The notes under the pieces are model-generated. The model was not told where the DNA came from and did no database searches. It was given only the letters and a program-made list of their open reading frames with translations. Shown one piece after another: positions 34,739-40,829 of a stretch of DNA of 64,000 nt (positions within the stretch are counted from its first letter, which is position 1; each line of letters begins with the position of its first letter). A program made the translations under genes and the position numbers. This stretch comes from Dehalococcoidia bacterium (GTDB lineage: Bacteria > Chloroflexota > Dehalococcoidia > Lucifugimonadales > UBA3495). The DNA lies in contig JASLXV010000023.1 in the NCBI GenBank assembly GCA_030740155.1, positions 18,908-82,907 of the forward strand. The letters are read 5' to 3'.

Positions 34739-35387
34739 TATTCACCCCTAATCTTGATATGCGTCATTGCCATCCACTATTCGGATTACGACCTCGAACG
34801 CTCAGTGAACGGATTGACGGGGTCTTCCAACTCTCCCTGCTTTTTTGGCGCCTTTCCCGACTTGACATAAACATAAACCTTGATCCCGTGGCATTGTCAA
34901 CGCTTCACAGGCCGAGCTAATGGCATCTTTTGGGTCGCTCCGCCCTAGTGGAAAAGCCGGACTCGATTCGTACCCCAAATCCTGACAGGCACCAGCTTCC
35001 ATCTCTCTAGCCACTCCGGGAGACCTCCCCACCAGCGGTCCGGGAAGCAACTCCGCCTCGCCGTTGCCGCATATGTGCGAAACTTGAGAACCCCCCCTCC
35101 GCCTGCCCGAATTTAGCGCGTCGCCATCAATTCAGCTTCAAATGACTCGTAGACCTGATCCAAATTGAAATGCAGCCGGGCGGTTGCCTATTTCGAGACA
35201 GGTGGATACACGGAGAACAGGCTGGGGCTTTCCGGCTTTTCGGCTAGAGGGGGCCGTGGGTGGCCACTCGACGCGGTGGGCTAAGAGCAGGGCCCCGGCA
35301 GGAGCGACTCAGCTTGCGGCTCCCCGCGCCCTGCGGCTAGGCTTAGGGTGAACGGATGGTCATAAGGGCAATTTTCGATATTTGGCG

Positions 35388-36116
35388 TTAGATACCCGCA
35401 CCGCGAGTAAACTCAGCCAACAGGGCTTCTTCACGCTCTGGGCGGTGGTTCGTTGCCGTTGCCTTTTGCACCACCCCAAGCTTCTCCTCGAGTTGACCTA
35501 CTCGGTCCTGAAGTCTTTCGTGGCTGCGCAGTACCAGCGTGATAGCCTCCGCAACCGGATCCGGAAGGTCTGCATGGTCAAGAACGGCCATCGGGTGTGG
35601 TTTCTCTTGGACCACTTTGCCGGGGACGCCGACGACCGTCGCGAACGGAGGAACGGTTTTCACGACAACAGAGCCGGCGCCGACCTTCGCGCCATCACCC
35701 AAAACCACTGGGCCAAGGACAGCGGATCCACCTCCCATCACAACATTGCTGCCCACGGTTGGGTGACGCTTACCCTTATCCAGCGAAGTCCCCCCCAGCA
35801 CGACTCCCTGGTACATCAAGACATCGTCGGCAATCTCCGCGGTTTCTCCGATCACGACTCCGGAGCCATGGTCGATAAAGAACCGCCGGCCGATCGTGGC
35901 CCCCGGATGTATTTCAATCCCGGTTAGAAACCGGCCGATGTGGGAAAGCAAACGGGCAAGGAAATAGATCTTGTGCCGCCACAGGTAATTCGAGACTCGG
36001 TATATCCACACCGCGTGGAGACCCGGATAGCAGAAGACTATCTCGAGTCTGGTCCGCGCGGCTGGGTCCATCTTGAAGACAGTTGCTATATCTTCTCTCA
36101 GTCTTCCAAACATCAC
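35388..36116 (-). CDS. cysE: Serine O-acetyltransferase
   Basis: [29 protein letters not shown] and DLPDP motifs. Confidence 0.95.
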
Positions 36117-36184
36117 AGGCCTGTCCTAATTGTGGTTTTACTGCTCCGGCGAAGCTTCAGACTTTATTGAGAACCAGGTTTGGA

Positions 36185-37105
36185 TTACGCGAAGAGTCCC
36201 GTGGATAGATATCGCTCCCCGGTATCGGGTGCGATCACCACGATAAGCTTGCCGGCGTTCTCCGGTCTCTTGGCAACCTGTATGGCAGACCAGACCGCGG
36301 CGCCTGAAGATATGCCTGCCAATATCCCTTCTTCTCTGGCAAGCCGCTTGGCCGTCGCCGCGGCATCTTCGTTAGATACCTGGATGATCTCGTCAATCAG
36401 GTCCGTACGGAGGACCTGCGGAACAAACCCGGCTCCTATTCCCTGTATCTTGTGGGGCCCGGGACTTCCACCGGAAAGGACCGGCGAAGCCACAGGCTCG
36501 ACTGCAATAGCTTTGAAACTTGGTTTTCGCGGTTTGATTACTTCGGCAACTCCGGTTATCGTCCCGCCGGTACCCACTCCCGACACTAGGATATCCACCT
36601 GGCCATCGGTGTCGTTCCAAATCTCCTCGGCAGTGGTGAGCCGGTGAACCTCGGGGTTCGCCGGATTCATGAACTGTTGTGGCATGAAGGCGTTCGGGTC
36701 TTCTTTCACTATCTGCTCAGCCTTGCCGATGGCCCCTTTCATTCCCTCACTTCCCGGAGTCAGAACCAACTCGCAGCCAAAAGCAGCCAGGAGTTGCCGC
36801 CTTTCCTCCGTCATCGTCTCCGGCATGGTTAGAAGCAACCGGTACCCCTTGGAGGCACAGACCAGGGCCAATCCAATCCCAGTATTGCCGCTTGTCGGTT
36901 CAACAATGACGGTGTTTGGCCCGATCAGACCGGCTTTTTCCGCCGCCGCGATCATCGACAGGCCGATTCTATCTTTGACGCTGCTGCAAGGATTGAACGA
37001 TTCAAGCTTGGCCGCCACGGTGGCCGCTGCTCCGTCCAAGATGCGGTTCAATTTTACCAACGGCGTCCCACCGATCAGGCCAGTAATATCATCAGCTATT
37101 CTCAC
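36185..37105 (-). CDS. cysK: Cysteine synthase A
   Basis: [32 protein letters not shown] and GERYLST motifs; GAGGAGG RBS. Confidence 0.97.
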
Positions 37106-37136
37106 GGTTGTGCCTCCTCAAAATGATCATTACGCC

Positions 37137-37165
37137 AAAAACCCCCAGTGATTTCACTGAGGGTT
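37137..37165 (-). terminator. Intrinsic terminator (attenuator) upstream of cysK
   Basis: Minus strand AACCCTCAGTG-AAAT-CACTGGGGGTTTTT, ending about 30 nt before the cysK start. Confidence 0.85.
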
Positions 37166-37226
37166 CTGGTCTTTTCAGCCTGGTTTTCTTTGGACAATCA
37201 TTTACAGGCGAAAGACCTCACCCTCA
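37158..37226 (-). promoter_or_regulatory. Antiterminator hairpin overlapping the leader ORF and the terminator 5' arm
   Basis: TGAGGGT-ga-GGTCTTT (37226-37211) pairs with AAAGACC-aga-ACCCTCA (37174-37158). Confidence 0.75.
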
Positions 37227-37296
37227 AAATACAACAAGTGCAACAAGTACAACAGGTACAACAACAACCGGGGTTTCGGTCGACTTGGCTACACAT
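37198..37296 (-). CDS. Cys-rich leader peptide (32 aa, MCSQVDRNPGCCCTCCTCCTCCILRVRSFACK)
   Basis: ATG to TGA read by hand; AAGGA RBS 7 nt upstream; 11 Cys codons, 10 of them TGT. Confidence 0.85.
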   Translation of the reverse strand: MCSQVDRNPGCCCTCCTCCTCCILRVRSFACK

Positions 37297-37332
37297 CTCG
37301 GAATCCTTCGCGGTGATTGCCATGGCGGACAG

Positions 37333-37361
37333 AATATATCACATTCCATGACCATTGTGAA
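37333..37361 (-). promoter_or_regulatory. Sigma70 promoter TTCACA-17-TATATT (extended TG) of the cys leader
   Basis: Exact 17-nt spacer; -10 lies 36 nt before the leader ATG. Confidence 0.7.
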
Positions 37362-37515
37362 AGTATGGTGGGGGGGCGGACCAATTGTCCGAGGTGGACT
37401 CAGCCAGTCGGAAAAGATTGGGGCAATATCAGGCGACAGTCTCGCCTTTCCGCCACAGTCTACCGCTGCTCTTTGGGCGGGCCACTTCTGCTAGCGTCTT
37501 GATGCGCCGCCCCCC

Positions 37516-38727
37516 TCACACCCACGGCGTGCGCTTGGAGCGCTCTTTTTCCGAAGTGTAGGCGGGAAGTCCCTGGCGTTCCAGGACCTCGGTCAGCGTT
37601 TCCTTGAACAGCCGGCGGTCGGAGGCGCCGATCACGGCCTGCTCGTGGGCCTCGGAGATCGCCACCGGGTACCCCTGGCCCCGGCGGCACTGGTCCAGGA
37701 TCAGGCTGTGGCCCAGGGACAATAGCGTCTCGTCCAGCGCGACCCACCGGGGGACCTCCACCCTGGCTATCTCCTCGCCGCCGTGCAGGTAGTAGAAATA
37801 GACCTGCTGGGCCTCCCCGTAGTTCTCCCTGGGGACCGAGGAGTTGGTCCGGTAGATGGGGGAGCGCCACCCTGGGGGCAGCCGCCGCTGGAACAGGTCC
37901 CGGTCCAGGACGCCTCCGGCCAGGTCGCAAGGGGAGCGGACGGAGCGCCGGTTGCCGCAGGACTGGCGGCACACACCCAGGTCGTGGGGGCAGAGGCAGC
38001 ATCTGATGGCGTTGACCACCTCGGTGCTCCGGGGCAGGGAGACGTAGGCGGCCAGGGTGACCGGACGGCGCTCGGCCAGGTGCCGTAGCCGCTCCAGCGC
38101 CGGAATCAGCCGGTCGCGAATAATCGCCTCCCTCACGAAGGGCCGGTATCCCTGGCCGGACAGTCCCCAGAGCACCAGGGAGCCGTCGACCAACGCCAGG
38201 ACCGGCGTATCGGAGGGGCACTCGGCGACGACCTCGGCCAGTTGCTCCAGCTCCCGCACCGTCCGCACCAGGCCTAGAAGGGGGCCGGTTACGGCCTCTT
38301 CCTGGGCGGGATTTCCGGGGTCAACGAGGTAGAGTTCCGACGGGCCGGCCCCGAGTTGGGGATGGCTGAAGAAGCTGGCATCGGGACGTCCGCCGTAGGT
38401 CAGAACGCACCCGCCGAGGTTGATCAAGTGGCAGCTAACCGGAAGGTGCCGGTCAACGTCGATGTGGGAGCCGTCCACCGCCGTCACCGACCAGTCCGCC
38501 GGCGGTGGCGGCGGCGCGTAGCTGCCCACCAGGCGGTCTTCCACTTGGGCGGCCAGAAAAGGCCGGTCGGTGGAGGTGCGGGTGATCTCGGCGGCCTCGG
38601 CGGGGTCGACTCCCTGGGCCGCCTCCAGCAGGGCGGTCAGCCGGGCTTCCCGGTCCTCCCGGGACTGGCCCAAACCCTGGGCCACCCGGTCCAGTTGATG
38701 GAGGGTCTCACCCAGGTCCAGGGGCAT
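37516..38727 (-). CDS. NurA-domain nuclease
   Basis: AVDGSH, LVDGSL, RVEVP.W and GYP...EAHE.AVI motifs. Confidence 0.85.
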   Translation of the reverse strand: MPLDLGETLHQLDRVAQGLGQSREDREARLTALLEAAQGVDPAEAAEITRTSTDRPFLAAQVEDRLVGSYAPPPPPADWSVTAVDGSHIDVDRHLPVSCHLINLGGCVLTYGGRPDASFFSHPQLGAGPSELYLVDPGNPAQEEAVTGPLLGLVRTVRELEQLAEVVAECPSDTPVLALVDGSLVLWGLSGQGYRPFVREAIIRDRLIPALERLRHLAERRPVTLAAYVSLPRSTEVVNAIRCCLCPHDLGVCRQSCGNRRSVRSPCDLAGGVLDRDLFQRRLPPGWRSPIYRTNSSVPRENYGEAQQVYFYYLHGGEEIARVEVPRWVALDETLLSLGHSLILDQCRRGQGYPVAISEAHEQAVIGASDRRLFKETLTEVLERQGLPAYTSEKERSKRTPWV

Positions 38728-38733
38728 CGCGGT

Positions 38734-40599
38734 TTACCTCAACACGCGCTCGTCGCCAACGCGACGGGTGATGTGCTGCTGGTCCAGGTATTCCAATAGG
38801 GGCAACACGTACTTGCGGCTGGAGTTGAACATGGTCCTGGCCTCGGCGACGGTGATGCTTTCGTTGGACTGAAGGTGGGAGACGACCCGGTCCGCCATCT
38901 CCCGGTAGGCGGCGGCGGTGAACACCACCGACGGGTTCACCCTCACCACCTGGCCCTGGTCGATCAGCACCCCCAGCAGCTCCGCTTCCAGGGGTTGGTC
39001 GCCGGGAGGCGTGTAAGGCTCCCGGCCCAGGATTTTCAAATATTCGGCCACCTGCTGCTGCATCTTGGGGGTCAAGGTTACCTGGTGGCCGGGGAGCCGC
39101 AGGAACGGGGCCTCTTCCACCACGTAGCTTTCGCCGGCCAGACGGGCCAACGCCCGGGTGAACGCGGGCTGAGACAGGCCGAGGCGGCTGCGGATTTCCT
39201 GGACGGGCGCCCCCCGCCGCAAGGGGTATTGGCCGTGGTAGGTCTGGAGGGACACAAACATCTTGCTCTTGAGGATGTCCCAACTCTGTGCTGAGTAAAC
39301 GACCGCGTCGTTATCGGTCCCCAACTCTCCCAGGACCACCACGTCCCCGTCGTCCACGAGGCTTGCCGTACGCTCCACGACCTCGGACGCCGGCAGGTTG
39401 GAGCGCCGGGATAGGGTCGTCAGATCGCAGGGGCCCCACTGCTCGGCGACGCTGAGCAGTATGTCTTCACCGGTGCCCTGGTCCAGCATCATCAGCCTTT
39501 CTTCCACCTCTGGGCTGAAGCGCCGGTGCCGCCGCCGGGGGTTCGGGTCCACCACCTGCCCCCCGCCCAGGGTATCTTCGGCGGAGCGGATGACGAAGAA
39601 GTCCCCTTTTACCATCGGCAGGGATTCGTTCAACAGAATCTGCACCCAGCCTTCGGCGCCGGGGGCCAGCCGGTCGGCGTCCAGCAGCCGGACCCTGGCG
39701 GTAGTCTCACTGGTGAACAGATGGAAGGTCACCCCCTCGTTGTGGCGCAGGGAGTGGGGCGCTCCCCGGACCATCCTCAACTGGGCGTCCAGCCTTCTGG
39801 TGGGCCTCAACCATCCGGGGGTGGTCAAGATTTCCCCTCGCTGGACCTCGGTGCGGGCCAGCCCGGAGATATTTACGGCCAGCCGGACTCCCGGCTGGGT
39901 GTTCTCCACCTTGGTCTTGTGGCTCTGCAATCCGCGAATCCTGCCCCGGCGGCCCGAGGGGGCTAGCTCTACCTCCTGCCCCACGGCCAGGACCCCGTCG
40001 ATGAGGGTTCCGGTGACCACGGTCCCGAAGCCGGAGATGGTGAAGCAGCGGTCCACGGGCAGCCGGGGACGCCCCAGGTCGCGCCGCGCCTCGGTGTCGT
40101 CGAGTATCCCGTCGAGGGCGGAGCGCAGATCGTCGAGCCCGGCCCCGGTGTTGGCCGATACCCCAACCATTGCCGAGTTTTCGAAAGAGGTCCCTTTCAG
40201 GGCGTCCTCGACCTCGGCCATGACCAGCTCCACCATCTCTTCATCGACCAGATCGGTCTTGGTGATCACCACCAGGTTGCGCCGGACCTGGAGGATGTCC
40301 AGGATGGCCAGGTGCTCCCGGGTTTGAGGCATGACGCTTTCGTCGGCGGCCACGATCAGCATAGCCAGGTCGATGGCGCCGACGCCGGCCAGCATGTTCT
40401 TGATGAACCGTTCGTGGCCCGGCACATCGACGATGCTGACCTCCCGCCCGCTGGGCAAGGTCATCCAGGCGAATCCGAGGTCGACGGTCATCTCCCGCGC
40501 CTTTTCTTCGGGCAGGCGGTCCGGGTCGATGTCAGTCAGGGCCTTGACCAGCGTGGACTTCCCGTGGTCCACGTGGCCGGCGGTGCCTATCACGTACAT
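38734..40599 (-). CDS. selB: Selenocysteine-specific elongation factor
   Basis: [19 protein letters not shown] and C-terminal winged-helix SRKY..PLLEYLD...TRR.GD.R. Confidence 0.96.
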
Positions 40600-40829
40600 T
40601 AGGGCATGATCGCTATGCGGGTGTCTTCGGGTCCAAGTACGTCGATGGCATGATGAAGGCACGCACGAATGTCCTCGGCTTTGAGGCCAGGGTAGTAATC
40701 CTGGGTTATCTTCCCGAAGGAAAGACCTTCCCTCACCAGTTCAAGCACACTCAATACCGGAATCCTGGTACCTGTAACACATGGCTTCCCATAACGGATA
40801 TCCTGGCTTACCGTGATTCCTTCGCTCAT
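40599..40829 (-). CDS. DUF433 domain protein (antitoxin-like)
   Basis: GKPCV.GTRIPV...YPGL..EDI.ACL; stop codon overlaps the selB ATG. Confidence 0.85.

Follow-up and report, generated by a model that had tools for sequence, protein, structure and literature searches.

A candidate ribosome-mediated cysteine attenuator ahead of cysK-cysE in a marine Dehalococcoidia bacterium

Upstream of the cysteine biosynthesis genes cysK and cysE of a Dehalococcoidia bacterium lies a gap of 410 nucleotides (nt), and the question it raises is whether it houses a switch by which the supply of cysteine (Cys) sets the transcription of the two genes. The locus was analysed within a stretch of 64,000 nt (GenBank assembly GCA_030740155.1, contig JASLXV010000023.1, positions 18,908 to 82,907), referred to here as the window. 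The gap runs from a NurA-domain gene (38727-37516; Pfam NurA, E 4.9e-25) to cysK and contains an entire putative leader, which is the sole occupant between this conserved upstream gene and cysK. The original prediction, made from the letters of the DNA alone, was of an attenuator of the trp/his type, in which a ribosome translating a Cys-rich open reading frame (ORF) decides between an antiterminator and a terminator. That reading is supported in silico by conservation in a close relative (contig L170), by folds in which ribosome footprints were masked and by independent Cys leaders in other lineages. We put at roughly 0.8 the probability that the element is a ribosome-mediated attenuator through which the level of charged tRNA-Cys controls how far cysK-cysE are transcribed. 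All leader features are read on the minus strand, in positions of the window, and the parts of the locus are as follows.

37333-37361, minus strand: promoter, with a -35 element at 37361-37356, a 17-nt spacer, a TG at 37341-37340 (extended -10) and a -10 element at 37338-37333.
37304-37308, minus strand: Shine-Dalgarno sequence of the leader ORF, AAGGA, 7 nt 5' of the ATG at 37296.
37198-37296, minus strand: leader ORF of 32 codons plus TGA (37200-37198), with 11 Cys codons (10 TGT and 1 TGC).
37231-37266, minus strand: regulatory Cys run, codons 11-22, with nine Cys and three threonine codons, a 9-nt tandem repeat of 3.9 copies.
37205-37227, minus strand: 5' arm of the antiterminator, within the last nine leader codons, as found in the fold of the RNA that precedes the 3' arm of the terminator.
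37183-37204, minus strand: loop of the antiterminator, which holds the last two sense codons (Cys and lysine) and the stop codon at 37200-37198.
37155-37182, minus strand: 3' arm of the antiterminator, whose last 11 nt (37165-37155) double as the 5' arm of the terminator.
37137-37154, minus strand: remainder of the terminator, namely its loop (37154-37151), 3' arm (37150-37142) and run of five T (T5; 37141-37137); the hairpin alone is worth -15 to -17 kcal/mol.
37113-37119, minus strand: Shine-Dalgarno sequence of cysK, unpaired with the hairpin.
36185-37105, minus strand: cysK (O-acetylserine sulfhydrylase A), GTG start; TIGR01139, 470 bits against a cut-off of 351.
35388-36116, minus strand: cysE (serine O-acetyltransferase); TIGR01172, 233.7 bits against a cut-off of 210.7.

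The promoter, the ribosome-binding site (RBS), the 32-codon ORF, the nine Cys in 12 codons and the choice of TGT for 10 of the 11 Cys codons were all found where they had been predicted, as judged from the sequence and a promoter scan. In that scan the leader promoter matches at 10 of 12 positions, and the 3-kb region contains just one other promoter-like site, for a total of two where 1.0 is expected; from its spacing, transcription would start at about 37326. A second in-frame ATG at 37323 would extend the ORF to 41 amino acids. This 41-codon ORF was rejected, the position not being ATG in L170, and its absence from that relative supports the 32-codon reading.

The Cys run is not due to chance. 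Throughout the genome (3.6 Mb in 108 contigs, 62.6% G+C), only two stop-to-stop frames contain at least nine Cys in 12 codons, that of the leader and a repeat on contig C67, and the number of such Cys windows expected genome-wide by chance, from the genome's own TGY triplet frequency, is 2.4e-6. Across the 1936 long ORFs of this genome, 19% of Cys codons are TGT, as against 10 of 11 in the leader, which thus prefers a rare codon. This near-exclusive use of rare TGT probably serves either to raise sensitivity or to keep the run unstructured. The frame on C67 (offset 108469, plus strand) is a 140-codon open frame made up nearly entirely of Cys and tyrosine codons and is probably a simple repeat.

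The terminator stem is formed by 37163-37155 and 37150-37142 (9-13 base pairs (bp) with a 4-nt loop), and the whole element with T5 covers 37165-37137. One terminator scan did not list it, a miss probably explained by the ability of the stem to reach into the T run, and a separate scan called it; it also passes, as a positive control, the laxer of two terminator censuses given below. When only the RNA preceding the 3' arm of the terminator is folded, the two pairs of blocks singled out in the original prediction (37226-37220 with 37164-37158, and 37217-37211 with 37174-37168) pair as a single long hairpin. In this fold 37227-37205 is held by 37182-37157 at -27.9 kcal/mol (z = -2.7, with 5 of 500 dinucleotide shuffles as low). 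Antiterminator and hairpin-T5 terminator are both recovered in the folds, as had been claimed, and they share one strand.

Folds with a masked ribosome footprint, proposed alongside the prediction as a check, give two different outcomes. With the A site on the stop codon the whole 5' arm of the antiterminator is masked and the terminator forms, whereas a ribosome placed on any of Cys codons 11-19 does not reach the 5' arm; one on codon 22 covers its top helix. The comparison of Cys codons with the stop reproduces the logic of an attenuator, in kinetic terms only. In all folds the Cys tract is unpaired with the RBS of cysK.

From the parts, their order, their pattern of conservation and their alternative folds, we infer the transcription start, a translated leader, ribosome stalling, termination and a response to cysteine, which would be linked as follows. 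Transcription would begin at about 37326, followed by the loading of a ribosome on the leader ORF of 32 codons. If Cys-tRNA is plentiful, this ribosome would reach the stop codon at 37200-37198 and cover the antiterminator 5' arm (37227-37205). The strand 37165-37155, thereby freed, would pair with 37150-37142, and the hairpin and T5 would halt the polymerase at about 37141-37137, 32 nt before cysK. With scarce Cys-tRNA, the ribosome would stall early in the Cys run, at codons 11-19, and the free 5' arm would pair with 37182-37157 once that segment had been made. The 5' arm of the terminator would then be held, and the polymerase would enter cysK-cysE.

The identities of the two genes directly downstream of the leader were upheld by TIGR01139 and TIGR01172, with both cysK and cysE above the NCBIfam equivalog cut-offs. 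Only 31 nt (37136-37106) separate the T run from cysK, which leaves no room for a separate cysK promoter. In 12 studies, marine or seawater metagenomes contain the stretch in the form of contigs, and four RNA libraries contain parts of it; contigs from two of these libraries cover cysK and cysE. One RNA-library contig of 153 nt is an exact match to 37062-37214 and so reaches from the closing part of the leader ORF through the terminator and into cysK. It hints weakly at read-through transcripts, since contigs show neither ends nor amounts and DNA carry-over is possible. In a census under strict settings, strong hairpin and T-run sites follow 58 of 2453 long ORFs, compared with 8 of 2453 interior controls, and this enrichment indicates that the genome uses such signals. 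No tRNA genes were found in the window with ARAGORN.

Conservation of the element could be followed in one relative. A metagenome scan with CysE as the query returned eight relatives, among which L170 (3056 nt) is the one with a usable leader. It carries, in order, the end of the NurA-domain gene, the leader, cysK (93% protein identity) and cysE (88-89%), with an ATG start of cysK where the window has GTG. The two leaders align at 83% identity, and L170 keeps the -10 element with its TG, the RBS, the ATG at 37296, the frame, the position of the stop codon, both antiterminator arms and the terminator stem; 25 of the 29 promoter positions are the same. The only insertion or deletion in the ORF is one of 18 nt, a length that keeps the reading frame, and it removes six codons of the Cys run, which is thus 12 codons long in the window and 6 in L170.

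The distribution of the remaining differences separates the RNA arms from what surrounds them. In codons 1-10, 8 of 30 nt differ, with amino-acid replacements, and the last eight leader residues are identical. The antiterminator 5' arm is identical at 20 of 20 aligned positions, its loop differs at 7 of 22, and the non-coding 3' arm is identical at 27 of 28, compared with 72.7% identity at fourfold-degenerate sites of cysK. In the terminator, the 3' arm is identical at 9 of 9 positions and the loop at 2 of 4, and 7 of the 21 nt 3' of the stem differ. Taken together, paired segments have 56 positions the same and 4 changed, versus 31 and 16 for loops and tail (Fisher p = 4e-4). With the arms conserved and the N-terminal residues drifting, selection is visible on three things, namely the reading frame, the Cys codons and the arms of the RNA, and not on the peptide. 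The conservation of the short open reading frame (sORF) and its stems, on which the original prediction had been staked, holds in one close relative and was not found in the other family genomes and phylum loci searched.

The genomic setting suggests how such a restricted element could have arrived. The SelB and NurA-domain neighbours are kept in order in members of the family (59-76% identity), so the contig is native and leader-cysK-cysE is a lineage-specific addition; the leader seems to belong to a cassette that was acquired together with cysK-cysE. With CysK 70-78% identical across many phyla, the sequence points to no particular donor. The best CysK of relatives is at most 50% identical and is a second paralogue on another contig, and the cysK loci of 40 relatives are mostly this other paralogue, with no Cys leader. 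As far as sequence can tell, the element appears confined, among the loci examined, to the lineage of the window and L170.

The genome of the window itself carries the family-wide paralogue as a second cysK-like gene (contig C25, 120419-121288; 44% identical), which makes the cysK of the window an extra copy. Downstream of cysE, L170 has a second, diverged copy of about 140 nt (2534-2678) from the 3' end of the NurA gene; it corresponds to L170 1-136 and to 37644-37503 of the window and is 81.6% identical to its own first copy and 86% to the window, which has no second copy. The direct repeats that flank leader-cysK-cysE in L170 give it the look of an insertion scar.

A number of results count against an attenuator at this locus, the first of which concern energetics. 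When the full RNA is folded at equilibrium, the terminator forms at every ribosome position modelled; the terminator state is at -37.2 kcal/mol and the antiterminator at -27.9, a gap of about 9 kcal/mol. The competing helix has just 7-8 bp, with a 3-nt toehold beside the loop. As the terminator wins at equilibrium under all ribosome positions, antitermination could only be kinetic, and in the model read-through depends on co-transcriptional kinetics. The same is true of the trp leader, where control is kinetic because the terminator has the greater stability of the two. No conserved helix was found that would sequester the antiterminator in an untranslated leader; the window fold pairs the Shine-Dalgarno region of the leader with the top of the 5' arm, and the L170 fold is without the same helix. 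Canonical terminators are rare in the genome, following 2.4% of long ORFs, and a laxer census is nearly unenriched (14 of 700 after ORFs versus 9 of 700 interior). The T5 run is replaced in L170, where a stem of 18 perfect bp is followed by three T, one A and one T, so the terminator of this relative may be poor. L170 is the only homologue, and its single change within an arm weakens a pair. The TGT bias does not represent 11 independent events, the run being a 9-nt tandem repeat whose Cys codons are not independent draws. RNA contigs give no cover upstream of 37214, which is not evidence of absence.

The searches for further homologues add to these points. Leader DNA searches gave only chance-level matches in 60 relatives (best E 0.007) and none at E 1e-6 in 202 other genomes of the family. 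In a sample of the phylum, 156 of 401 genomes contained cysK, and among the 89 upstream regions examined (29 best loci and 60 further ones) no convincing Cys leader or leader terminator was found before these other cysK genes. Weak matches at L164, L156, L227, L269, L231/L233, L244, L263 and L228 were discarded as being off-frame in coding regions or startless. A degenerate search for the Cys-codon pattern in 400 genomes of the class was uninformative, being swamped by TGC/TGT simple repeats.

The same design was met in other lineages. Among 80 diverse cysK loci, Cys-dense sORFs were found on the sense strand in seven and on the antisense strand in two, and all seven sense sORFs have a hairpin and U run before the next gene, as do two weaker Cys sORFs in records labelled Chloroflexota. 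One of the seven loci is from the Caldilineaceae, where the leader directly precedes cysK. Four are from the Syntrophales, where it is followed by an O-acetylhomoserine/O-acetylserine sulfhydrylase gene (TIGR01326, above cut-off) and then cysK, and two are from the Acidobacteriaceae, where a peroxiredoxin-like gene stands between leader and cysK. Masked folds predict the same switch in each of the seven when the ribosome is set either on the first Cys codons or on the stop. Further leaders came to light among the relatives of these loci. A strict criterion was then applied to all sets, which required a sORF no more than 450 nt upstream with, close to its stop, either three Cys in a row or four in seven codons; the results by lineage were as follows.

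Acidobacteriaceae: sense strand 13 of 24, antisense strand 0 of 24.
Caldilineaceae: sense strand 3 of 10, antisense strand 0 of 10.
Syntrophales: sense strand 2 of 23, antisense strand 0 of 23.
Other cysK loci of the phylum (control): sense strand 0 of 89, antisense strand 5 of 89.

With a looser criterion, a Cys-rich sORF is present in 8 of the 10 Caldilineaceae loci, all with a terminator, and of the 13 leaders from the Acidobacteriaceae the scan gave 10 a terminator. When consensus folds were computed for the Caldilineaceae (six leaders) and the Acidobacteriaceae (nine leaders), both retained the terminator together with a competing helix upstream of it, and each contained two pairs in which both partners had changed; the antiterminator strands of the Acidobacteriaceae are invariant and therefore uninformative for covariation. 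The leaders from these three lineages have the same layout and predicted switch as that of the window, with the difference that some use a four-segment relay where the window uses one long hairpin. None can be aligned with the window leader or has detectable homology to it, and their peptides share Cys runs only. They are read as independent inventions of one mechanism, or else as relatives of the window leader that have diverged beyond recognition. By a modest margin we favour the broader view that poly-Cys leader attenuators form a widespread, polyphyletic and unannotated class that governs operons with cysK in three or more phyla (cysK-cysE in the window, cysK in the Caldilineaceae, sulfhydrylase-cysK in the Syntrophales and peroxiredoxin-cysK in the Acidobacteriaceae). 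As part of the same view, the leader here and cysK-cysE would move as one cassette that brings its own regulation and has been inserted where a conserved gene has its 3' end, and the number of Cys codons, 12 versus 6 in the run, would apparently be tuned by slippage of the 9-nt repeat.

The alternative that survives best, though we hold it to be unlikely, is that the Cys sORF does regulate cysK-cysE, by effects of stalling on the translation of cysK or by Rho-dependent polarity and not through the intrinsic terminator. Control by the polycysteine sORF of Mycobacterium smegmatis is translational and not by termination, according to Canestrari et al. 2020 (10.1101/834739), a mode of action of this kind was proposed for other Actinobacteria, and the Actinobacterial Cys leaders of Seliverstov et al. 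2005 (PMC1262725) have no terminators. The dominance of the terminator at equilibrium whatever the ribosome position, the T run that is not kept in L170 and the rarity of canonical terminators in the genome all fit such a scheme. Set against this, the Cys tract is free of the cysK RBS in every fold, and the predicted mRNA is not leaderless, its RBS being conserved while the ATG nearest the start site is not. A strong hairpin with T5 stands at the position of an attenuator and has a strand in common with a conserved competing helix, and all the analogous leaders in other phyla also have a hairpin and U run.

Less probable again is a functional Cys-rich micropeptide (metal-binding, redox-active or the precursor of a modified peptide) with a terminator of its own, placed next to cysK-cysE for co-expression or cysteine demand. 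Its good promoter, RBS and terminator do make the ORF resemble a small gene, and its last eight residues are identical in L170; but these conserved C-terminal codons are also the RNA arm, and their non-coding partner is conserved equally well. The Cys run differs two-fold in length between close relatives, codons 1-10 change at the amino-acid level, a rare codon is preferred and the leader peptides of other lineages have nothing but Cys runs in common, and the space past the terminator is too short for a cysK promoter. Least probable of all is coincidence, in which one frame of a 9-nt repeat encodes Cys by accident and the hairpin is either a terminator of the usual sort or a remnant from the insertion of the cassette: the run is indeed a tandem repeat and the cassette appears acquired, but start, frame and stop are maintained across the 18-nt indel in L170, 2.4e-6 such runs are expected by chance, and the location before cysteine synthesis genes recurs in three other lineages on the sense strand only.

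A terminator-based attenuator remains the preferred reading, and it places the leader beside the trp, his, leu, thr, ilv and pheA attenuators of enterobacteria, which likewise have an antiterminator and a terminator with a common strand, so that a ribosome at the stop leads to termination and a stalled one to read-through. Four sequence characteristics of classical attenuators were found in silico, namely a leader ORF with translation signals, enrichment in cognate codons, an intrinsic terminator and a mutually exclusive antiterminator. The window leader differs from them in its amino acid, cysteine, in its single long antiterminator hairpin with the stop codon in the loop, in the absence from the folds of a conserved helix of the 1:2 type and in its host, an uncultured marine bacterium. 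Its use of rare codons is reminiscent of the leu leader, for which rare codons were reportedly the subject of work by Carter, Bartkus and Calvo in 1986.

Several published Cys leaders bear on how new the element is. Seliverstov et al. 2005 (PMC1262725) predicted Cys leader peptides, none with a terminator, ahead of the cys operons of Mycobacterium and Propionibacterium acnes and ahead of the cbs gene in Bifidobacterium longum, and the mycobacterial polycysteine sORFs of Canestrari et al. 2020 (10.1101/834739) are leaderless and act on translation. These mycobacterial and Actinobacterial leaders share with the window a sORF with consecutive Cys before cysteine or sulfur genes and the sensing of tRNA-Cys by stalling. 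They are leaderless, their Cys tract pairs with the RBS of the next gene and they have no terminator, in contrast to the window, where an RBS-led ORF about 30 nt from the predicted start site is combined with an intrinsic terminator and a competing antiterminator. Being neither leaderless nor translational in its predicted action, the window leader falls outside the mycobacterial class. Closer in architecture is uORFC-8-2, an upstream open reading frame (uORF) with Cys codons and an intrinsic terminator predicted before cysS in the Rhodobacterales by Brewer et al. 2021 (PMC8632094). It has two tandem Cys codons near position 14-15, mostly TGC, acts on a tRNA synthetase gene, cysS, and occurs in alpha-proteobacteria only, whereas in the window leader the Cys codons number 9-11, are mostly TGT and precede genes of biosynthesis, cysK-cysE. 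The window leader is not the cysS motif.

The implied claim of novelty accordingly stands in part. No description of such an attenuator in Chloroflexi was found in the literature searched, but the claim is narrower than it was, since a Cys uORF with a terminator had already been predicted before cysS (PMC8632094). The paper on mycobacteria (10.1101/834739) states that uORF-mediated attenuation for cysteine was undescribed, and a review cited there lists no classical cysteine attenuator. A paper from 2026 (PMC13236596) does no more than cite the mycobacterial case, and a match for Chloroflexi (PMC4833913) is unrelated to cysteine. A literature search, conducted mostly outside subscription journals and supplements, returned no such element for cysK, Chloroflexi, Syntrophales or Acidobacteria. 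Rfam 15, including T-box, S-box, other riboswitches and amino-acid leaders, gave no match at E<=1 in 35000-39000. At nine related or analogous loci (E<=0.1) it gave only two tRNA genes and a sub-threshold match of an unrelated family antisense to one of these tRNAs.

Cysteine is absent from the classical list of terminator-based leader-peptide attenuation, and a trp-type switch for cysK-cysE would, if real, fill this gap. Synthesis of a sulfur amino acid would then be set directly by the charging of tRNA-Cys where only protein regulators have been assumed, and a Cys-dense sORF followed by a terminator would be a signature with which the cysteine regulons of uncultured bacteria could be annotated. 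Because near relatives differ in the length of the run, nature itself provides a test of how sensitivity depends on the number of control codons. The element is of more than average interest, given that cysteine had been without a classical attenuator and that unannotated examples of the design turn up in three other lineages.

Some further observations concern the surroundings of these loci. At 37139, a minor contig (depth 3.5 of 20) in one DNA run lacks one T of T5. On the plus strand, 37531-37543 is a terminator-like hairpin with a T run inside the 3' end of the NurA-domain gene, where no plus-strand gene ends. SelB (38734-40662) is two genes upstream of cysK in the window, and in one Acidobacteriaceae locus a tRNA-Sec (L097, 2835-2928) lies between the peroxiredoxin-like gene and cysK. 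This proximity of selenocysteine machinery to cysK with a Cys leader in two unrelated lineages is likely a coincidence, since the SelB-NurA synteny exists in relatives without cysK. Genomes of family f47 each have tens of matches to the TGY-repeat pattern, and few to the reversed control, which points to an abundance of simple repeats or of repeat proteins. Upstream of cysK in a different genome of the phylum are two long perfect palindromes (L244; G315:C31:5680-6250). Genes for Rrf2/CymR-like regulators lie directly upstream of cysK or cysE at L062, L064, L076, L172 and L174, and at L064 such a regulator (129 bits with the NCBIfam CymR model, below its cut-off of 195 bits) occurs together with a Cys leader.

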